From Squalus acanthias (taxonomy: Eukaryota), in the NCBI GenBank assembly GCA_030390025.1, contig CM059432.1, positions 52,888,001 through 52,952,000 of the forward strand: a stretch of 64,000 nt of DNA, given 5' to 3'. Below, piece after piece: positions 915 through 62,574 of the stretch. Both the position numbers and the translations under genes were made by a program. The notes beneath the pieces were generated by a model. That model made no database searches and had not been told where the DNA came from. It saw only the letters and a program-made list of their open reading frames with translations. Position 1 is the first letter of the stretch. Every line of letters starts with the position of its first letter.

Positions 915-2650
915 CCGGGGGGATTTTTTCGGGGGGGGGGGGGGGGGGGGGTGACGTGTCGGGTGGGAACATTTTTATTTGACAGCGAATAGGGAACCCG
1001 CCCGCCACGCTAGTTTCCCAGATGACGGGTCTGTCATCGCTGAACAGACCCGACACCAAGCGGCAGGGGAGGCAATTTAGATGATTCCGAGCTTGTTAAC
1101 AGGCACTTAAAATTTAATGGTGAGCTTAAAATAGTTTTTAAGAGTTTGCCCACGGCTTCCCCGCTGCTCGGGGATCACGTCAAGGTAAGGAGGTCGGGAG
1201 TTGTGTCACCGTGGGATCATTTCTTAACTTGACAGCTGCAAATGTGCTATAAAAGCTCCCATTTCATAGCCGTACACTTTCCAAGGTCAGAAGCTGTTGC
1301 TCACTGCATTTGGAAGACAGATTGAGCTTTATGCAGCTTGCATTTGTTTGGGGCAAACTCTGCATTCAGTGTCACCTCATTGCAACAACCTCTCTCACCA
1401 TTGACAGATCGCTCCAGTCAGCTCAACTTGACCTGCCATCTATTCCATCAGCGTCGGTGCCCTTGAAACTATTTCACCTTGGTCCTCGGAATCCCACCAC
1501 GATCAGCCCCAACACCACCAGCAAACTTCTCCGCAATCAACTGATGCTGCACAGGACACAGGGCATCAGCACCCGACCACATTGCTGCCTGGGACGTCAG
1601 GGATGGCCTCACCATAGCCAGATTTACTTCACTTGACGCTATACACCCTGGCTGCCACATGATGCGCCAGGTTGGCACCGCCCCACACCAATACCATAAA
1701 GCATCCCTACAATGACCAAGCCATTCCTTACACACTCATCGCCATTACAGGGGGTACCGATATGTCTCACCATTCACTGCAACTCACTAAGCCACTTCCA
1801 AAGGTGCACACAAATCTGTCCAAGAACGCAAAGTGTTGAAAATAAAGGTTTCAATGTTTGACAGCACATTAACAGAAACTTTACATGAACATTGGCTAAA
1901 ACACCCAAGTGCCTACCCTTGTGTGTTGTTACTTGGTATGATTGGACTAGGATGAGGGTGAGTGTGACCAGTTGCTATTGAGATGGGGAAGTGATAATGT
2001 AGATAGAGAGGGATGGGTGGAGCTGCACGGTAAGTTGGCGTGAGTAAGGATGTGCAGAAATAGGGTAGGGAAGGCAGAGTGATGGGGATGTGATGAGTGG
2101 CACAGCAGGATGAGGTTGAGTGTGGCTTTGCAGTAATGTTTCGTGATCTACTGAGATCATTGAAAGGTTTGCACCACTGCAGCCTGGTCCTCCTGACGAC
2201 ATCCCTGCTTGTGTCCTCCTGTGCAATATGCAACCAGGCTGCGTTGATCTCCTGGGGAGGTCTCTTCCGCCCATAAGGAGGGAAGAGATGCTGTGCTGTG
2301 ACTCCCTCCATAAGCATATGGAGGGAGTCATGAGAGCGCCTGGGTGCAGCTGTGCACCTCTGCAGTGCTTGCAGCACCTCAATGCTGTAGAACACTGACA
2401 GGACAACTGTCAAAATAAATTTGCGCAGGGTCCCTTTAAGGAAACCGACTGATCACGCATCATCAAATGACGTCACCAGACCCGCTTCCTTCATTTGGCC
2501 GGCAAATGCGCTGGACGGGCTTAACAAGCCCAATCAGCATAAGAGCACTTTGGACAGCAGGCTGGATCCAGCAGCGGGGTCGCAACCTGCCACCGACCCC
2601 GGCCGTACCTATCAATCGTTGAAATAGATCAGTATCTCCAGCCCCCCCCA
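915..2650. mobile_element. Internally deleted PIF/Harbinger-like DNA transposon with a relic Myb/SANT-like ORF on the minus strand
   Basis: ORF 1913-2413(-) contains APRRSHDSLHMLMEG...LFPPYGRKRPPQEINAAWLHIAQE..SRDVVRRTRLQWCKPFNDL, the pattern of Harbinger/NAIF1-type Myb-like domains; GC/CpG-rich ends; termini not clearly resolved. Confidence 0.6.
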
Positions 2651-2876
2651 CTTCCCCGAGAATATTCTAATCTTGCAAAAATTATAATTATGGACAACCT
2701 TAAGATAATGCATAGTGAATCGAACATTAAAAGGAGCTTTACACAATAAAACCTTAAACTAAGCGGAAGAAAACAATCTGCAGCAATATATAAAATTGGG
2801 GAAAATTAATTTCTGTGACGCGACAGAAGGCAACAAACAACCTGGCCTTAAATCTATTTGATTTCCGGCTCTTCCC

Positions 2877-2913
2877 AGTTCTGATGAAAGGTCATCGACC
2901 TGAAACGTTAACT
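2877..2913 (+). ncRNA. Minimal type I hammerhead ribozyme motif
   Basis: AGTT-CTGATGA-A-AGGTC-ATC-GACCT-GAAA-CG-TT-AACT: helix I AGTT/AACT, intact core, 5-bp helix II, palindromic ACGT helix III. Confidence 0.8.
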
Positions 2914-2972
2914 CTCTTTCTCTCTCCACGGATGCTGCCTGGCCTGCTGAGTTTTTCCAGCGTTTTCTGTTG
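2877..2972 (+). mobile_element. Penelope-like element pseudo-LTR fragment
   Basis: Hammerhead core followed by GATGCTGCCTGGCCTGCTGAGTTTTTCCAGC, which I recognise as typical of fish Penelope pLTRs. Confidence 0.7.
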
Positions 2973-3977
2973 TTATTACAAATTGCTTGATCTTGGCTGC
3001 ATACATTAGAATTAAGGGGGACATTAAAAAATAACTTCAACTGAAAGTTAAATCAACCTCAGCTACTCTCATGGACTTAGTCACTGTATTGATACAAGAT
3101 TAATAACTATATTCACCCAGATAAGTCCTTATATAAGTTGTGGGGATATTATGGGAACAATAAATTCTGACAGGCACCCAAAGCCAAGGGGTATAACAGA
3201 ACCCAAAGACATGGTTACGTAAGAACTCAGTTAGAAGCTAGACGAATAATCTCCATGAAGCAACTGTTAGAAAGGCAGATGTGGATAATGATGCTGTTAT
3301 GTTAAAACTGCTCAAGTGTCAACAGCTTAGACTCTAAGGCAGAAAAGCTTTTGGAATGTTTTTGCAAAAACACTGGACAGATGAGCTGGTACATTTATCA
3401 ATTTTGGCCAATTAAATGCTCTTGATCTTCACCAGCCAAGAAAGCAAAATATGCAACAAAATCCAGTCTCACAACCACTGCAAGGTAAGCGGTGGGACAT
3501 AAAAGCTGAAATTCAAAATTATTCCAAATAAGATGGTCACTAAAACTTCTTTGATGCTGAAAAGCTGAATTTGATCCGCAAATTTGTAATTTCACCCCAC
3601 TGAAGGAAGCAAGCGACAACATATGGACACTTTACTTTGTTGCAATGTACATTTCTACTTGCTCTTCACCCTATCTTCCAGAGTGGTGGCACAAGCTGGT
3701 GACGACTGCATGCAGCCCATGGCAAATCTCCCCTTTGATTTGAGAGAAAAAAATTCTTGTTCCAAGTAATCTCGAAGCTGTATTCGTGATTATGATTTAT
3801 AAAAAGTGAGAAAATTTTGATTGTGATGGTGCTGTAGCAATTGCCCAGTGAAGATTTTAAGTTGAATTATACAGATCAGTTTTAAGCAAAACTTTTGGAC
3901 AACACACTATCCGAAGTACCATGCAGTTTTGAAGATAAAGTTAAAACAATTAACATGATTAAGATTGAGAAGTGGTA

Positions 3978-14033: not shown

Positions 14034-14695
14034 GCAAGCAATTAAGAAAGCAAATGGTATGTTGGCCTTTATTACAAGAGGATTTGAGTAGAAGAGTAAA
14101 GATGTCTTACTGCAATTATATTAGGGCCCTGGTGAGACCACACCTGGAGTAGTGTGTACAGTTTTGGTCTCCTTACTAAGGAAGGATATACTTGCCATAG
14201 AGGGAGTGCAACAAAGGTTCACCAGACTGATTCCTGGGATGGGGGATTGTCCTTTGAGGAGAGATCGAGTAGACTGGGCCTATACTCTCTGGAGTTTAGA
14301 AGAATGAGAGGTGATCTCATTGAAACATACAAAATTCTTACAGGGCTTGACAGGGTAGATGCAGGGAGGATGTTTCCCCTGGCTGGGGAGTCTAGAACCA
14401 GGGGTCACAGTCTCAGAATAAGGAGTCGGCAATTTAGGACTGAGATGAGGAGAAATTTCTTCACTCAGAGGGTGGTGAATCTTTGGAATTCTCTACCCCA
14501 GAGGGCTGTGGAGGCTCAGTCGTTGAGTATATTCAAGACAGAAATTGAGATTTTTGAATATTAAGGGAATCAAGGGATTTGGGGATCGTTCAGGAAAGTG
14601 GAGATGAGGTAGAAGATCAATCATGATCTCATTGAATGGCAGAGCAGGCTCGAAGGGCCAAATGGCCTACTCCTGCTCCTATTTCTTATGTTTTT
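14034..14695 (+). mobile_element. CR1 LINE 3' fragment, nested
   Basis: LGLYSLEFRRMRGDLIETYKIL...FFTQRVVNLWNSLP; TSD ATAACA (14028-14033, 14696-14701). Confidence 0.9.
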
Positions 14696-14960
14696 ATAAC
14701 ATAAATCTATCAATCACAATTTTGAGATTTTCAATTGATCTAGCCTCAACAACATTTTAGAGGAAGAGTTTTCCAGATTTCCACTATCCTTTATGTGAAG
14801 AAGTGCTTCTTGACATCACCCCTGAACGGCCGAGCTCTAACTTTAGGGTTATGCCCCCCCCAACCTTCCTGTTCTGGACTCCAACAGAGGAAATAATTTA
14901 TTTCCATCTCTAATATGATTAAATGATTTGATAAACACCGCAATTAGATCACCCCTTAAT

Positions 14961-19821: not shown

Positions 19822-21207
19822 CAGTAAACTCTCGTTTAAACGGCATCCAATTATCCGGAATTCTCTAATAACCGGCAAAATTCAGAAGTAGGTTCAGGAA
19901 CCCAAAGGTAAGTTTTACTGTATATTTGTGGCTGTGTAACTGGGGTTCTCGTACCTTTTGCCGTGTAACCGGGTCCCCTGTACCTGTGGCCGTGTAACCG
20001 GGTCCCCTGTACCTGTGGCCGTGTAACCGGGTCCCCTGTACCTGTGGCCGTGTAACCGGGTCCCCTGTACCTGTGGCCGTGTAACCGGGTCCCCTGTACC
20101 TGTGGCCGTGTAACCGGGGCTCCAGCACCTGTGGCCGTGTAACCGGGGCTCCAGCACCTGTGGCCGTGTAACCGGGGCTCCAGCACCTGTGGCCGTGTAA
20201 CCGGGGCTCCAGCACCTGTGGCCGTGTAACCGGGGCTCCAGCACCTGTGGCCGTGTAACCGGGGCTCCAGCACCTGTGGCCGTGTAACCGGGGCTCCAGC
20301 ACCTGTGGCCGTGTAACCGGGGCTCCAGCACCTGTGGCCGTGTAACCGGGGCTCCAGCACCTGTGGCCGTGTAACCGGGGCTCCAGCACCTGTGGCCGTG
20401 TAACCGGGGCTCCAGCACCTGTGGCCGTGTAACCGGGGCTCCAGCACCTGTGGCCGTGTAACCGGGGCTCCAGCACCTGTGGCCGTGTAACCGGGGCTCC
20501 AGCACCTGTGGCCGTGTAACCGGGGCTCCAGCACCTGTGGCCGTGTAACCGGGGCTCCAGCACCTGTGGCCGTGTAACCGGGGCTCCAGCACCTGTGGCC
20601 GTGTAACCGGGGCTCCAGCACCTGTGGCCGTGTAACCGGGGCTCCAGCACCTGTGGCCGTGTAACCGGGGCTCCAGCACCTGTGGCCGTGTAACCGGGGC
20701 TCCAGCACCTGTGGCCGTGTAACCGGGGCTCCAGCACTTGTGGCCGTGTAACCGGGGCTCCAGCACTTGTGGCCGTGTAACCGGGGCTCCAGCACCTGTG
20801 GCCGTGTAACCGGGGCTCCAGCACTTGTGGCCGTGTAACCGGGGCTCCAGCACTTGTGGCCGTGTAACCGGGGCTCCAGCACCTGTGGCTGTGTAACCGG
20901 GGCTCCAGCACCTGTGGCCGTGTAACCGCGGCTCCTGCACCTGTGGCCGTGTATCAGGGGCTCCTGGATCTGTGGCCGTGTAACAGGGGCTCCTGTACCT
21001 GTGGCCGTGTAACAGGGACTCCTGGATCTGTGGCTGTGTAACCAGGGCTCCTGTGCCTGTACAACCGGGGCTCCAGTACCTGTGGCCGTGTAACCGGGAT
21101 CCTGCACCTGTGGCTGTGTAACGGGGCTCTCGTACCTTGGTAGGTATACCTCTCCGTTATCCGGAATTTTTAATCAACCGGCACCCCGGATATGTAAGAG
21201 TTTAATA
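19822..21207. mobile_element. Putative pogo/Tigger-like MITE shell enclosing a minisatellite
   Basis: TA|CAGTAAACTCTCG left end; degenerate right end AAGAGTTTAATA|TA; subterminal repeat TTATCCGGAATT...AACCGGCA at 19851 and 21157. Confidence 0.5.
19928..21138. repeat. 29-bp GC-rich minisatellite, about 41 units
   Basis: Unit CCTGTGGCCGTGTAACCGGGGCTCCAGCA (20/29 GC); variant blocks at both ends. Confidence 0.97.
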
Positions 21208-35101: not shown

Positions 35102-35619
35102 CTAAAAATAAAAGAAGTACAGCTAAGGCACATACACCACAAAAGACTTTAATTTTTCCTTAATACCAACTTTCAAATAAGTGCCACACAAAAATCAACT
35201 GATTGTCACACTAACTATCTTCAATGTAGTTTATTAAGTTATCATAGTTCAACCTCCAAAAACAAATCAATAATCCATCATCCAAATGTGTATAAGGACT
35301 TCAAAGTGCACCAATGAATGCAGGATTTGCTGCTCAGCCCTGTACAAAACATTGTCCTTTAACTGTAGCGCTGAAGGGGGTGGCATTGGAGGATCAAGCC
35401 AGAGGAAGAGAGTGTTACGAGAATGGGAGCTTTGTATGAGAATTATGAACTATATTCAATTCTATAATTTACCTCTGTACCTAATAAAGTTCATTGTTTG
35501 TACTTATTTTTAAATGATAAAATGTTTTTTGAAAGTTTTGTTTTGGGTTAGCTAGGTGTTTGATCACCAAATAGTAAGGAATTCACACAAGTTACATCTT
35601 TCCCATATGGAAGGTTCAC

Positions 35620-38600
35620 TCTCAATGACGATGACAAATAGAGATAAAATGGGTTTGATCTAATAGCCATTACAGAGACGTGGTTGCAAAGTGACCAAGG
35701 TTAGGAACTAAATGTTCCAGGGTACTTGACTTTTCGAAAAGACAGGCAGAATGGAAAAGGAGGGGGAGTAGCCCTGATAATAAAGGATGACATAAGGACA
35801 GTAGAGAGAAAGGATCTCGGCTCGGAAGATCAGGAAGTAGAATCAGTATGGGTGGAGATAAGGAATAACAAGGGGCAGAAAACACTGGTGGGAGTAGTAT
35901 ATAGGCCCCCTAACAGTAGCTATACCGTTGGACAAAGTATTAATGAAGAAATAGTAGGAGCTTGCAAAGGTAACACAATAATCGTGGGGGACTTTAATCT
36001 TCATATAGACTGGACAAATCAAATTGGCAAAGGTAGTCTGGAGGACGAGTTCATGGAATGCATTCGGGACAGATTCCTAGAACAATACGTCATGGAACTA
36101 ACCAGGGAACAGGCTATTTTAGATCTTGTATTGTGTAATGAGGCAGGGTTACTTAGCAATCTCAGTAAAGGATCCTCTGGGGCAGAGTGATCATAACATG
36201 ATAGAATTTCACATTAAGTTTGAGAGTGACTTGCCTAAGTCCAAAACTAGAGTCTTAAACTTAAATAAAGCCAATTACATAGGTATGAGGGGCGAGTTGG
36301 CTAAGGTAGATTGGAAAAATAGATTAAAAGTTATGGTGGTAGATAAGCAGTGGCTAGCATTTAAAGAAATATTCATAATTCTCAACAAAAATACATTCCA
36401 TTGAGAAACAAAAACTCCACGGGAAAAGTGATCCAACTGTGGCTAACTAAAGAAGTTAAGGATAGCATTAGATTGAAAGAAGCAGCTTATAATGTTGTGA
36501 AGAATAGTAGTAAGCCTGAGGATTGGGAGAGTTTCAGAAACCAGCAAAGGATGACCAAAACATTGATAAAAAGGGAAAAAATAGAATGAAAGAAAACTAG
36601 CAGGAAATATAAAAGCAGGTTGTAAGAGCTTTTACAAGTATGTAAAAAGGAAGAGAGTAGCAAAAATAAACATAGGTCCCTTCGAGGCTGAGACAGGAGA
36701 AATTATTATGGGGAATAAGGAAATGGCAGAAACTTTAACCAACTATTTTGTATCTGTCTTCACAGTAGAAGACACAAAAAGCATACCAAAAATGGTGGGG
36801 AACCAAGGGTCTAATGAGGGTGAGGAACTTAACGTAATTAATATAAGTAGAGAAAAAGTACTAGAGAAACTAATGGGACTAAAAGCTGACAAATCCCCTG
36901 GACCCGACGGCCTACATCCTAGGGTTCTAAAAGAGGTGGCTGAAGAGATAGTGGATGCATTGATTTTGATCTTCCAAAATTTCCTAGATTCTATAACGGT
37001 CCCAGCGGATTGGAAGTTCGCAAATGGAACACCGCTATTCAAGAAAGGAGAGAGAAAACAGGGAACTACAGGCCAGTTAGCCTGACATCAGTCGTCAGGA
37101 AAATGCTGGAATCCATTGTTAAGGAAGTTGTATCAGGGCACTTAGAAAATCATAATATGATTAGGCAGAGTCAACATGGTTTTATGAAAGGGAAATCATG
37201 TTTGACAAATTTATTAGAGTTTTTTGAGGATGTAACTAGCAGGGTAGATAAAGGGGAACCAGTGGATGTAGTATATTTGGATTTCCAAAAGGCATTTGAT
37301 AAGATGCCACATAAAAGGTTATTACACAAAATTAGGGTTAATGAGATTGGGGGTAATATAGTAGCATGGATAGAGGATTGATTAACGGACAGAAAACAGA
37401 GAGTAGGGATAAACGGATCTTTTTCAGGTTGGCAGGCTGTAATTAGTGGGGTGCCGCAAGGATCAGTGTCGGGGCTGCAGCTATTTACAATCTAGATTAA
37501 TGACCTCGATGAAGTTTGCTGACGGTACAAAGCTAGGTGGAACAGTAAGCTGTAAGGAGAACACAAAGGGCTGGATTTTGATACTGGGGCGGGTTGGGGT
37601 CGTGTCATCCACTTTTCATGTTATCCACCCGACTGCAATTGGATGTGGGAGATTGATGCAATTTTCACCTAATTGGGCAATTGAGTTCCAGCATGTGGGA
37701 ACCCATGAACCAATTAGTGTTTTCAGTCTGAAAGTCACCTCTGATGATGTCATCATTGCTGCTGCATTGAAGGTCTGCAAAGACTGCCTGGCCTTTGCTG
37801 AGAGGGGACCTGGATGCAAAATGAGCAGCAGCAGCCCTAAGTCTACTCCCAGATATTTTTACACAAGAGAGAGAGAGATCCAGCCAGCCAAATGTGCTCC
37901 CGCCAGGTTTCACAATCGTGGTTCAGAACAGGTGTGCTTCACGTAGAACAAGGGTTAAAATCACAAAGGCCTTTCAAAATGGCATTAGAGAGCCAATTTA
38001 GTGCTTGTTAAGGGCCTTAACAGCCTATCCCGTCTCTTAAAGGCGGGACGCAGTCGGGACCAGCAGACACGATTTCATGAAAATTGCGTGGAGGCGGACT
38101 TGTGCCCGCCCGCCAGTTTTCGCAATTTTAACCCCCCACACGCCTCCAAACCCGCCTCCACGGGTCAATGAAAATCCAGCCCAAAGAGTCTGCAAAGGGA
38201 TATAGATAGACTAAGTGAGTGGGCAGTAAGGTGGCAGATGGAGTATAATGTAGGAAAATGTGAGGTTATTCGCTTTGGTAAGAAGAATTGAAAAACAGAA
38301 TATTTTTTAAATGGCGAGAAACTTTCAAATGTTGGTGTTCAGAGAGGTTTGGGTGTCCTCGTGCAAGAAACACAGAAAGCTAGCATGCAGGTACAGCAAG
38401 CAATAAGGAAGGCAAATGGCATGTTGGCCTTTATTGCAAGGGGGTTGGAGTATAAGAGTAAAGAAGTCTTGCTACAATTGTACAAGGCCTTGGTGAGACC
38501 ACACCTGGAGTACTGTGCACAGTTTTGGTCTCCTTATCCAAGTAAGGAAATACTTGCCTTGAAGGCAGTGCAACCAAGGTTCACTAGACTGACTCCTGGG

Positions 38601-39063
38601 ATGAGAGGGCTGTCCTATGATGAGAGATTGTGTAGAATGGGCCTATACTCTCTGGAGTTTACAAGAATGAGAGGTGATCTCATTGAAACATACAAGATTC
38701 TGAAGGGGATTGACAGGGTAGATGCTGAGAGGTTGTTTCTCCTGGCTGAAGTGTCTAGAACTAGGGGGCATAGTCTCAGGATAAGGGGTAGGCCATTTAA
38801 GACTGAGATGAGGAGGAATTTCTTCACTCAGAGGGTTGTGAATCTTTGGAATTCTCTGCCCCAGAGGGCTGTGAATGCTGAGTCTTTGTGTATATTCAAG
38901 GCTGAGAGAGATAGATTTTTGGACTCTAGGGGAATCAAGGGATATGGAGATCGGGCGGGAAAGTAGAGTTGAGGTAGAAGATCAGCCATGATCTTATTGA
39001 ATGGCAGAGCAGGCTCGAGGGGCCGTATGGCCTACTCCTGCTCCTATTTCTTATGTTCTTATG
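35620..39063 (+). mobile_element. CR1 LINE with nearly complete but broken ORF2 (APE and RT)
   Basis: YRPPNS, VGDFN, SDH, KSPGPDG, YLDFQKAFDK, LEYCAQFWSP; tail TTCTTATGTTCTTATG; interrupted by a MITE. Confidence 0.92.
37568..38182. mobile_element. PIF/Harbinger-type MITE nested in CR1 RT
   Basis: Perfect 12-bp TIR GGGCTGGATTTT/AAAATCCAGCCC, TSD AAA; removing it restores ENTKSLQRDID. Confidence 0.9.
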
Positions 39064-39165
39064 ACATATCACACTTATGATGCGGAGATGCCGGTGTTGG
39101 ACTGGGGTGGACAAAATTGAGAGGTCGCACAACACCAGGTTATAGTCCAACAGTTTTATTTGAAA

Positions 39166-39208
39166 TCACAAGCTTTCGGAGCTATCGATTTGCTCCTTCC
39201 TCAGGTGA
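39166..39208 (-). ncRNA. Minimal hammerhead ribozyme motif (left arm, sense to SMCHD1 pre-mRNA)
   Basis: Exact reverse complement of 39475-39517. Confidence 0.75.
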
Positions 39209-39275
39209 AGTAAATTAGATACAGAATCTCCAAAGCATATATAGATAGAAAACAAAGCATGTGTACTTTACAATT

Positions 39276-39376
39276 GCAGACCAATAAATTAAATCATCCT
39301 GACTATGCAGACCAATAAATTAAATCATCCTGACTATGCAGACCAATAAATTAAATCATCCTGACCAATAAATTAA
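39276..39376. repeat. 31-bp tandem repeat (about 3 units) at the palindrome centre
   Basis: Unit GCAGACCAATAAATTAAATCATCCTGACTAT at 39276, 39307 and 39338 (partial), plus a CAATAAATTAA remnant. Confidence 0.95.
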
Positions 39377-39474
39377 ATAGTCAGGATGATTTAATTTATT
39401 GGTCTGCAATTGTAAAGTACACATGCTTTGTTTTCTATCTATATATGCTTTGGAGATTCTGTATCTAATTTACT

Positions 39475-39517
39475 TCACCTGAGGAAGGAGCAAATCGATA
39501 GCTCCGAAAGCTTGTGA
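39475..39517 (+). ncRNA. Minimal hammerhead ribozyme motif (right arm)
   Basis: TCAC-CTGAGGA-A-GGAGC-AAATCGATA-GCTCC-GAAA-GC-TT-GTGA. Confidence 0.75.
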
Positions 39518-39971
39518 TTTCAAATAAAACTGTTGGACTATAACCTGGTGTTGTGCGACCTCTCAATTATATCACACTTACCCAGAGAACTTGGTATAGG
39601 CTGGGAACAACCAAGGACCACTAAGCATGCAGAGATACTGCTGCATTTTAACCAGCTAAAAGCTTGCAGCTTTCCCAGCACAAGGCACTAAGCTTGTCCA
39701 GCTAAAACCACCATGTCAGGGCATTCATGATGGGTTATGTGTAGCCAATTGATGGGACAAAATTCCAACTAGTTAATTGTCAATAGTACTCCAAACCTGC
39801 CAAACTCAGGTTACTGGATTACCAATGCCATCTATAATGCAACTGCTGGCAAGAAAATTACTCTCAAATTCACAGTACTTGTGAGCAACTTCAAAAGTGA
39901 CACTTACCTAAATAAAAAGATTTAAAAGAATACTCCAATACTTTACGTAATCTAACTACTCAGGTTCTTAC

Positions 39972-40139
39972 CTCTTCTGTATTTCCCCATTCAAGGAAGG
40001 TAATTTGGGTTGGAGGCCCTGCCGTCAGATGAATTCTTACATAATCCACAAAATCACGCCAAGCAAAACAAAGTTCTTTGTGACCAGTGGATCCAGGTAT
40101 AAACTTTATTCCCCGAACAACCATATACCGCCCATTTTC
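39972..40139 (-). CDS. SMCHD1: SMCHD1 internal coding exon, 168 nt
   Basis: TTCATAG|GAA ... GAG|GTAAGA; ENGRYMVVRGIKFIPGSTGHKELCFAWRDFVDYVRIHLTAGPPTQITFLEWGNTEE. Confidence 0.95.
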
Positions 40140-40289
40140 CTATGAAGAAAAGAAAAAGAGCTTCCATTTATATACCACCTTTCATGTCCTCAAAGTCCCA
40201 AAACACTTCACACAATGAATTACTTTTGCAGCATAGCTAGTTGCTTTAAGATGGTTTGATATAAATACATTTATATACGTCTGTAAACA

Positions 40290-40514
40290 TCACAATTAGA
40301 TCGGAAAAGCTTAAGTTTTCGTCAGTTCAACTGGTTTCACTGATTGCTGGCTACGGGGAGTTCCAGTGTCGGAGCAGTGAATAATTGACCACAACTTCAG
40401 GATTTCAGTGTTTATATGTGTATGTGCTAAATCCTGAAGTTACGGTCAGTTACAGAGGGGTAATGATGGCCAACGCTGACAGTTCGCCATCATTACCACT
40501 GCAAAATCTGGGCC
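40290..40514. mobile_element. Truncated Harbinger-type MITE (right end), same family as 13079-13769
   Basis: CCAGTGTCGGAGCAGTGAAT and GAAGTT.CGGTCAGTT shared with 13620-13710; ends GCAAAATCTGGGCC. Confidence 0.7.
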
Positions 40515-40664
40515 TTTAAAAATTATACTCAAGTTTTTAATTTCATAGGATTGAATATTTCTCATGCCAGTATCACCTGTACATTAGAGTAAACAAATTA
40601 AATTTTCTGGCGTTCAGTCATATAAACTTTAAATCAATAATAAAACTAGCATGGTTTCTTCTGA

Positions 40665-41690
40665 TCAAATTTGGTGTTTGATAAAGTACTACATAACTGA
40701 CTTGTTAGCAAAATTGAAGCCCATAGGATTAAAGAGGCAGTGGCAGCGTGGATACAAAATTGGCTAAAACACAAAAAGCAGAGAGTAGTGCAGACAGTAG
40801 TTTTTCCAGACTGGAGGGAAGTATAGGGGTCACTATTAGGACCACTGCTCTTTTTGATATATATTATTGACCTGGACTTGGGTGTAAAGGGAACAATTTC
40901 AAAGTTTGCAGATGACACAAAACTCGGAAATGTAGTAAACGGTGAGGAGGATAGTAGCAGACTTCAGGAGGACTTAAGGCAGACTGGTGAAATGGGCGGG
41001 CACATGGCAGATGAAATTGAATGCAAAGAAGTGTGAAGTGATGCATTTTGGAAGGAAGAACAAGGAGGCAAAATTAACTAAATGGTACAATTTTAAAGGG
41101 TGTGCAGGAACAGAGAGACCAAGGAGTTCACATACATACATTTTTGAAGGCTGCAGAATAAGTTGACAGAGCTGTTAAAGCATATGGGATCCTGGGCTTT
41201 ATAAAAGTACAAAAGCAAGGAAGTTATGCTACACCTTCATAAATCATTGATTCAGCCTCAGCTGGAGTAATGTGTCCAAATCTGGGCACCACACTACAGG
41301 AAGGATGTCAAAGCCTTGGAGAGGGTGCAGAGAAGATTTACTAGAATGATACCAGGGATGAGGGACTTCAGTTATGTGGACAGACAAGAGAAGTTGGGAT
41401 TGTTCACCTTAGAGCAGAGAAGGTTAAGGGAAGATTTAATAGAACTGTTCAAAATTATGAAGGGTTCTGATAGAGTAAATAAGGAAAAATAGTTTTTACT
41501 TGCAGGTGTGTCAGTAACCAGAGGACACAGACTGAAGAGAATTGGCAAAAGAACCAGGGGAAAGATGAGATTTTTTTTAATTTTTTTTATAAACACAGCG
41601 AGTTATGATGATTTGTAATGCACTGCCTGAAAGGGTGGTGGAAGCAGACTCAATAGTAACTTACAAAAGGGAATTAGATAGCAGGTCAAT
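40665..41690 (+). mobile_element. 5'-truncated CR1 LINE
   Basis: ISKFADDTKLG in ORF 40854-41036 plus downstream CR1 sequence. Confidence 0.85.
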
Positions 41691-60388: not shown

Positions 60389-61000
60389 AGAATCACAGAA
60401 TCATATAATGGTTACAGCACAGGAGGCTGCTATTCGGCCCGTCAAGCCTGTGTTGGCTCTCTGCAAGCGCACTTCAGCAAGTCCCACTCTCCCATCCTTT
60501 CCCCGTAGCCCTGCAAATTTTCTCTCTTCAGACACTTATCCAATTCCCTTTTGAAAGCCAAGATTGAGTCTGCCTCCACCACCCTTTCAGGCAGTACATT
60601 CCAGATCCTAACCACTCACTGCGTAAAAAAGTTTTTCCTCATGTCATCTTTGGTTCTTCTGCCAATCACCTTAAATCTGTGTTCTCTGGTTCGCAACCCT
60701 TCCGTCAATGGGAACACTTTCTCTCTATCTACTCTGTCTAGACCCATAATTTTGAACACCTCTATCAAATCTCCTCTCAACCTTCTCTGCTCTAAGGAGA
60801 ACAACCCCAGCTTCTCTAGTCTACCCACATAACTGAAGTCCCTCAGCCCTGGAACCATTCTTGTAAATCTTTTCTGCACCCTCTCCAAGGCCTTGACATC
60901 TTTCCTAAAGTGCGGTGCCCAGAATTGGACACAATACTCCAGTTGGGGCCAAACTGATGTTTTATAAAAGTTCATTATAACTTCCTTGCTTTTGTACTCC
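60389..61000 (-). mobile_element. CR1 3' fragment, nested
   Basis: ORF 60616-60975 LEYCVQFWAPHFRKD...; tail at the left end. Confidence 0.88.
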
Positions 61001-61584: not shown

Positions 61585-62574
61585 GTATACAGTGCTGTTC
61601 CCCAGGGGTCGGTTCTAGGACCACTGCATTTCTGGATATATATTAATGACTTGGACATGGGTGTACAGGGCACAATTTCAAAATTTGCAGATGACAAAAC
61701 TTGGAAGTATAGTGAACAGTGAGGAAGATAGTGATAGACTTCAAGAGGACATAGACAGGCTGGCAGAATGGGCGGACACGTGGCAGATTAAATTTAACAC
61801 CAAAAAGTGCAAAGTGATACATTTTGGTAGAAAGAATAAGGAGGAAATATAAACTAAAGGGTATAATCCTAAATGGGTTGCATGAACAGAGAGACCTCGG
61901 GGTTTATGTGCACAAATTGTTGAAGGTGGCAGGGCAGGTTGAGAAAGCAGTTAAAAAGGCTTATGGGATCCTGGGCTTCATGAATAGAGGTATAGAGTAC
62001 AAAAGCGTGGAATTATGATGAACCTGTATAAAACACTGGTTCGGCCTCAAATGGAGTATTGTGTCCAATTCTGGGCACCGTACTTCAGGAAGGATGTGAA
62101 GGCCTTGGAGAGGGTGCAGAAAAGATTTACGAGAATGATTCCAGGGATGAGGGACTTCAGTTATGTGGATAGACTGGAGAAGCTGGGGTTGTTCTCCTTA
62201 GAGCAGAGAAGATCAAGAGGAGGTTTGATAGAGGTGTTCAAAATCATGAGGAGTCTTAATAGAGTAGATAGAGAGAAACTGTTCCCATTGGCAGAGGGGT
62301 CAAGAACCAGAGGACACAGATTGAAGGTGATTGGCAAAAGAACCAAAGGCGACATAAGAAAAAATGCAGTGAGTTGTTAGGATCTAGAATGCACTGCCCG
62401 AAAGGGTGGTGGAGGCAGACTCAATCACGGCTTTCAAAAGGGAGTTGGATAAGTACCTGAATGAAAAAAAATTGCAGGGCTGCGGGGGAGTGGGACTAGC
62501 TGAGGTGCCCTTGCAGAGAGTTGGCACGGACTCGACAGACCGAATGGCCTTCTTCCGTGCTGTAACCATTGTAT
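61585..62574 (+). mobile_element. 5'-truncated CR1, nested in the host ORF1
   Basis: ORF 62015-62380; TSD GATTAC at 61579-61584 and 62575-62580. Confidence 0.9.

Follow-up and report, generated by a model that had tools for sequence, protein, structure and literature searches.

A perfect 192-bp palindrome in an SMCHD1 intron, probably the trace of a recent Penelope-like insertion

What kind of event leaves a perfect palindrome inside an intron, and is the gene likely to be affected by it? The question is raised by a locus in a 64-kb stretch of DNA (hereafter the window), where exact extension outward from positions 39306 and 39377 paired 192 of 192 bases between a left arm (39115-39306) and a right arm (39377-39568). 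Complementarity ends at 39115/39568, and the next inward pair is mismatched, which leaves a spacer of 70 nt (39307-39376); the mismatch-free 192-bp arms and 70-bp spacer reported in the first-pass annotation of this DNA were thereby reproduced. No other perfect inverted repeat in the window is as long, the runner-up measuring 64 nt. On its left side only, the palindrome is prolonged by 37 nt (39078-39114), and the whole insert (39078-39568; 491 nt without the TSD copies) is enclosed by a 12-mer present at 39066-39077 and again, in direct orientation on the + strand, at 39569-39580. These are its two occurrences in the window, and the chance of such a match at one fixed place, calculated from base composition, is 1.4e-7. 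The 37-bp left extension and 12-bp direct repeat, also noted previously, are thus confirmed, and the 12-mer is taken as the TSD. The arms read as two 5'-truncated pLTR copies cut at the identical element base, the left one with its sense on the - strand, which is also the strand of SMCHD1, the right one with its sense on the + strand. The one-sided extension (- strand) corresponds to a PLE “tail” and is C/A-rich on the sense strand of the element (25 of 37 nt), while the tail-less right arm terminates in ATT. A BLASTN search of the window with arm and tail revealed no further copy beyond the palindrome locus.

The surrounding gene was identified by protein comparison. The frame at 39972-40139 (- strand) is 86% identical to SMCHD1 of the whale shark, all three candidates being SMCHD1 proteins of cartilaginous fishes (86%, 77%), and the protein P0002 maps ten consecutive exons to the - strand of the window. 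Exons 40139-39972 and 35101-34973 correspond to consecutive residues of P0002 (1155-1210 and 1211-1253), and they flank the 4,870-nt host intron (35102-39971, - strand). A Pfam search with four exon frames returned 0 families, the identity of SMCHD1 resting on the protein search. The exon at 39972-40139 is followed by a GT donor at 39971, which lies 402 nt from the right arm and 390 nt from the right TSD copy, in agreement with the distance of about 400 bp to an SMCHD1 splice donor given earlier; from the palindrome to the next acceptor there are 3,975 nt. Among the pieces listed, a 5,996-nt contig of the public run X6 matches only 39972-40141, with 0 differences, as would a spliced transcript, and X6 is guessed to be RNA. 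To the left of the insert lies an older LINE 3' fragment with a short-repeat tail (38181-39063, + strand), antisense to SMCHD1. RT/APE-RT proteins match its frame at 38292-38963 with 71% identity, those of cartilaginous fishes being among the top rows, and the frame gave 0 matches in a PDB search; a second copy of this LINE, 87% alike, is located at 14248-14703. Of the “CR1 tail” of the first-pass annotation, the LINE 3' end is borne out by the RT frame, and the name CR1 is a presumed label.

Each arm contains a minimal type I hammerhead motif, located at 39475-39517 (+) in the right arm and mirrored at 39166-39208 (-) in the left one. Both combine a stem I of 4 bp with the conserved core, which has an extra A after A9, a stem II of 5 bp with a closing G-C pair, and a loop III of 2 nt that is palindromic. 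A descriptor of this motif, which was composed after the motif had been seen, gave three matches in the 64-kb window (the two arms and one at +2881) and matched none of 200 shuffles. Rfam models searched against the palindrome region up to an E value of 10 gave no hammerhead match; the 15 matches obtained, mostly to miRNA hairpin models on the palindrome centre, were all far below the gathering score and were rejected as structure-only. Folding of 39078-39215 alone yielded a z of -0.3, so that thermodynamics by itself does not single out the hammerhead region. The 37-nt tail, in turn, is the 3' side of a stem-loop formed with the arm (-16.2 kcal/mol with the tail versus -5.4 without it), and the two ends of the element lie 83 and 120 nt past the start of stem II. 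According to PMC4209133, PLE hammerheads are recognised by the extra base, a G10.1-C11.1 pair and a palindromic loop III. The arm motifs agree with those of metazoan PLEs in the 4-bp helix I, the extra base between A9 and 10.1, G10.1-C11.1 and loop III, whereas their helix II has 5 bp as compared with 7-8 bp in schistosome families (PMC4209133). The same text notes pairs of PLE hammerheads on opposite strands, 100-700 bp apart, and a single motif without cleavage. Self-cleavage is not expected in the present case either, since the lone sense hammerhead would be a monomer locked in the stem, and the two arm motifs, being on opposite strands, would be unable to dimerise within one transcript. 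The third match of the descriptor, at 2877-2913 (+), is a second minimal hammerhead that belongs to a different repeat family and has the same extra base and palindromic loop III; inspection by eye of the 36 frames at 1500-3300 revealed no PLE-like ORF around it.

Contigs of four of the 24 public runs listed (X1, X2 and X6 from organism A, X10 from organism B) were aligned to positions 39337-40700, a stretch which holds one arm and lacks the tail. The arm is plainly a very abundant repeat in these contigs: the summed depth in X2 was 1.2e6-4.5e6 over the arm against 16 over the unique intron, a depth ratio that is not a copy number. In X10 only the hammerhead and the 3' part of the arm were covered, and zero depth at 39383-39474 indicates that the 5' part of the subfamily is missing there at 88% likeness. 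The holes in cover at 40533-40670 (X1 and X2) and 39705-40118 (X1) carry no weight.

The contigs also show where the family ends. Past 39565, at least 72 contigs of X1 and at least 85 of X2 depart from the arm into long, unlike sequence (agreement 0.43 and 0.40), and among the loose-end rows listed many contigs stop near 39565-39572; hence, the tail-less end of the arm is a recurrent end of the family. At least 21 X1 contigs run past 39568 into tail-like letters instead. On the opposite side, at least three X6 contigs continue upstream of the arm (before 39377), as does at least one of X2 (before 39374), and the palindrome arms are therefore truncated pieces of a longer sequence. No recurrent 5' end at 39377 was found among the loose ends listed (best 24 of 898 rows), so that a start site common to the family does not account for the 5' stop shared by the arms. 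Against the family contigs, the arm differed in a single substitution row and in two rows of stem-loop deletions only. In the family, the loop that caps hammerhead stem II (39491-39500) is variable, with 1- and 5-nt deletions relative to the palindrome copy in many contigs; unlike the loop, the letters of stem II recur in the loose-end consensus among the rows listed.

Two further contigs bear on the insertion site itself. Record 17 of X2 (769 nt, depth 16) and record 9 of X10 (813 nt) both align from exactly 39569, leaving over 26 and 24 letters, respectively, on the TSD side. Along 743 nt, only 6 substitutions and a single gap of 9 bp separate record 17 from the window, which places organism A in the source species or a close one. 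The left-over letters, which are themselves unseen, would not be arm, because arm letters would have aligned; they could in principle be tail letters in record 17, since the aligned stretch lacked the tail, and their simplest reading is the LINE tail. Most likely, therefore, contigs from two organisms show the empty insertion site, and the difference between filled and empty sites would reflect either polymorphism or a recent split. The only source of the filled allele is the assembly, for neither the centre of the palindrome nor its filled right junction is crossed by any contig among the pieces listed (best 32 of 21,614). This, together with the perfection of the arms and the trouble that inverted PLE structures are reported to give assemblers (PMC8557442), is what could be said for a fold-back artefact of assembly or library preparation. 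A fold-back read, however, would re-enter the left flank; instead the unique right flank resumes, collinear with the contigs of two organisms. Neither would an artefact yield a 12-bp TSD (p about 1e-7), an offset of 37 nt or an arm that ends at the recurrent end of the family, and we regard this explanation as very improbable.

The organisation described above is already known from PLEs, of which it is the standard insertion form. In the description given by PMC8557442, a PLE insertion usually carries at its 5' end a neighbouring copy that is inverted and 5'-truncated, and one of its ends bears a tail of 30-40 bp; in Pen2a of the rotifer Adineta vaga, for instance, a pLTR in inverted orientation is accompanied by a tail of 31 bp and a TSD of 9 bp (PMC3846280). 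The present unit shares with these EN+ PLE insertions the adjacent head-to-head copy, truncated at its 5' side as judged from the contigs that extend upstream of 39377, the tail at one end only (37 nt; contigs either stop at the tail-less end or enter the tail), the minimal type I hammerhead in the pLTR, and a short TSD round the whole unit, a single copy of which is deduced for the empty site from X2 record 17 and X10 record 9. It differs from them in that no ORF lies between the repeats, both copies are stumps, so that a bare palindrome results, and the spacer is composed of tandem re-copies; its TSD has 12 bp, as compared with 8-10 bp in the rotifer examples (PMC3846280, PMC8557442). The insert contains no RT + GIY-YIG ORF, and no ATG-started ORF begins in the hammerhead. 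A protein search with the open frame of the arm scored 0 of 3 candidates, nothing real emerged from a second protein search, and its match to P0124, a 4,818-aa repeat protein with a best single stretch of 4.7 bits, was discarded as spurious. A pattern scan with two motifs from the window found 0 loci in genome_contigs, viral_contigs and metagenome_contigs, none of which is a eukaryote genome. The first-pass annotation had proposed a Penelope-like pLTR insertion with inverted arms and a tail, and this assignment is supported by the structure, the hammerhead, the abundance of the repeat and the recurrent end, no PLE ORF being tied to the arm; by whichever route it was made, the unit is very probably a real PLE-type insertion.

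The lack of an ORF would suit a non-autonomous hammerhead element of retrozyme- or SINE-like kind represented by the arm, or a fold-back element of MITE type, mobile as one entire unit. Animal retrozymes are described as derived from pLTRs and as present in the one cartilaginous fish sampled (bioRxiv 10.64898/2026.07.22.740005). Retrozymes are, however, head-to-tail tandem units, while the palindrome is head to head with its hammerheads on opposite strands, and the only tandem units found here are 31 nt long and devoid of a hammerhead. The family extends upstream of 39377 (the at least three X6 contigs and one X2 contig mentioned above), which makes the arm a truncated piece; as regards a MITE, the inverted repeat misses the left TSD copy by the 37-nt offset, and the centre is a patchwork. 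Taken together, such an origin appears improbable.

The patchwork of the centre deserves a closer description, as it was, like the arm hammerheads, absent from the first-pass annotation. According to the repeat search and reading of the sequence, the 70-nt spacer is not unique sequence and consists of tandem re-copies of the inner 31 nt of the arm: one full 31-nt unit, one 28-nt unit and one piece of 11-13 nt, with microhomology of 1, 3 and 2 nt at the joins. After the final base of the left arm there is a 31-nt jump back (1-nt overlap), the unit is repeated, and a 22-nt jump back (3-nt overlap) follows; spacer and right arm meet at a 2-nt self-complementary overlap. In an alternative register, 160 bp and a further 29 bp are paired on either side of a 62-nt bulge, the loop being 14 nt long, and the palindrome is then weaker than the 192-bp form by 12 kcal/mol (RNA) or 7 kcal/mol (DNA). 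How many 31-nt units there are is the detail of the palindrome that deserves least confidence.

As for the mechanism, a close comparison is offered by Poseidon of Anolis carolinensis (PAc), although by features and not by sequence. In PMC11167929, the purified anole PLE protein, a predicted dimer with the cut motif ATT, cuts and extends both strands of AT-rich DNA with no need of target homology, and its reverse transcription has two adjacent internal start sites, the gap between them being the tail. Downstream of its hammerhead, the palindrome likewise shows two ends with 37 nt between them; counted from where stem II begins, they lie at 83 and 120 nt, as against 111-118 nt for the main PAc start. 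It also shares with PAc a C/A-rich stem-loop and an AT-rich target; unlike PAc, it is a copy without an ATG-started ORF that begins in the hammerhead. By analogy with this in vitro work, the element endonuclease would nick both strands of an AT-rich site, with the cuts 12 nt apart, and reverse transcription of element RNA would start from each freed 3' end: from that of the top strand at the far site (tail included), from that of the bottom strand at the near site, 37 nt upstream. The + strand from 39078 would then represent the cDNA of top-strand priming, and the cDNA of bottom-strand priming would be the - strand from 39568. Both cDNAs would have halted at one template base, for which a short or broken RNA that ended there is the simplest explanation. 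Since the two 3' ends would have the same sequence and be unable to pair, one of them may have re-copied its last 31 nt and slipped before the ends were joined at the 2-nt self-complementary overlap, with gap filling yielding the TSD. A recent, single insertion of a pLTR end module, in which both strands were primed, the top one at the far site and the bottom one at the near site, is the reading to which we would give somewhat better than an even chance.

A different route leads to the same product: one cDNA may have stalled, slipped, paired with itself and copied itself back, after which an endonuclease or repair would have trimmed it at the near site. Such copying back would account at once for the shared stop of the arms, for every shared variant and for the slips at the centre. 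Self-priming has been proposed for inverted PLE junctions (PMC3846280), the tail has been ascribed to endonuclease resolution of an intermediate (PMC8557442), and the ATT at which the tail-less arm terminates is also the motif cut by the anole enzyme (PMC11167929). Copying back is unneeded, however, given that in vitro both strands were extended and both tail boundaries were start sites of the RT (PMC11167929), and the near site is where many copies, among the rows listed, come to an end, as would be expected of a start site. One must bear in mind that copying back and the priming of both strands cannot be separated from the sequence; we consider the former tentative, and rather doubtful as the actual course of events.

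A third possibility concerns the template. A single RNA might have been primed twice by a dimeric PLE RT with its subunits 37 nt apart, which would have re-copied the last 31 nt at the template's 5' end in a telomerase-like manner. This seems unlikely, and worth stating all the same for what it would imply. The PLE RT is the sister enzyme of telomerase, and SMCHD1 is a chromatin silencer. Were the single-RNA reading true, the genome would gain a perfect dsRNA hairpin at each event, and the one at the present locus would be an allele, possibly segregating, of a chromatin-silencer gene. Among papers outside subscription, none was found on the palindrome locus or on a model with one RNA and a double start.

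To return to the favoured reading, in which both strands were primed in one recent event, its age needs comment. The first-pass annotation inferred a very recent insertion. Youth is indicated by the identical arms and by the likely empty site in two organisms; arm identity alone, however, is no clock, as both arms can be made in one event or homogenised. An older insertion might have had its arms equalised by gene conversion, or its centre remodelled later to relieve a perfect palindrome: the arm ends overlap in 2 self-complementary nt, so that a direct join would have been a perfect palindrome, and shorter spacers are less stable (PMC7999016). Yet the likely empty site in a near-identical contig (X2 record 17), the intact TSD and the few differences between arm and family point to a recent event, and an old one seems highly improbable; later remodelling of the centre alone is possible.

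With regard to the consequences for the transcript, the - strand of the palindrome folds at -366.6 kcal/mol (z -38), and none of 100 shuffles folded as well. In the SMCHD1 pre-mRNA, the antisense arm comes first and the sense arm second. The arms should form a 192-bp stem, later spliced out, in which the one sense hammerhead would be buried. A long perfect intronic stem would be a plausible ADAR substrate, while a role of Dicer is unlikely for a nuclear intron; from the earlier suggestion of a dsRNA stem serving ADAR or Dicer, the predicted stem is thus retained and Dicer is not. The cruciform proposed at the same time is weak. In eukaryotic cells, Alus spaced by 12 bp stalled replication forks and those spaced by 52 bp did not, a longer spacer meaning lower risk (PMC7999016), and the 70-nt spacer disfavours a full cruciform, which is unlikely, though the inner 29-bp stem with its 14-nt loop exists and could form a small DNA hairpin.

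The antisense arm also supplies an acceptor-like site (pyrimidine tract and AG; 39479-39495, - strand), detected by a consensus scan of 38900-39975. No donor-like site with at least 5/7 consensus matches follows it down to 38900, and it is predicted to be buried in the stem. Donor-like sites occur in the intron at 39907 and 39581 (-); that at 39907, 64 nt downstream of 39971, has 6/7 consensus matches as against 5/7 for the true donor, and right beside it the X2 contig departs from the window by a substitution at 39906 and by a gap of 9 bp at 39915.

Two Alus in inverted orientation within one intron are described as forming editable dsRNA, and in one tested case such a pair shifted the splicing of the next exon (PMC2533698). 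The palindrome resembles such pairs in having two inverted copies in one intron and potential dsRNA, and differs from them in that its pair is perfect, arose in one event and flanks no exon. An effect on splicing is conceivable from this case (PMC2533698), but any effect of the palindrome on SMCHD1 appears very improbable, and the insertion is probably neutral. The window holds 103 inverted pairs of at least 30 nt, among them a 236-nt pair (90%) in another SMCHD1 intron, so dsRNA is not new to the SMCHD1 transcript; the 192-bp stem is still the only long perfect one. The 236-nt pair consists of opposed LINE pieces 1 kb apart (60745-60980 and 62013-62248) and is a dsRNA candidate in its own right.

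The locus is, in short, real, young and ordinary, and PLE stumps of its kind are very numerous. Its own contribution lies in the one shared 5' stop, the re-copied template ends and a likely empty allele, and it is of use as a clean record of a PLE insertion cycle that is still unsettled. The ends 37 nt apart, the shared 5' stop and the patchwork at the centre agree with the pair of start sites observed in vitro, and such features lend themselves to a genome-wide count. Should the allele segregate, carriers and non-carriers would provide a natural test of whether the 192-bp stem is edited or SMCHD1 splicing changed.

Two further repeats of the window may be mentioned. An older high-copy repeat with short hairpins occupies 40290-40530 and has deep, divergent cover in all four runs. 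Inside the 17-kb SMCHD1 intron, approximately positions 19840-21170 are taken up by a minisatellite with 29-bp units, for which 36 registers are listed and whose - strand contains long open frames.
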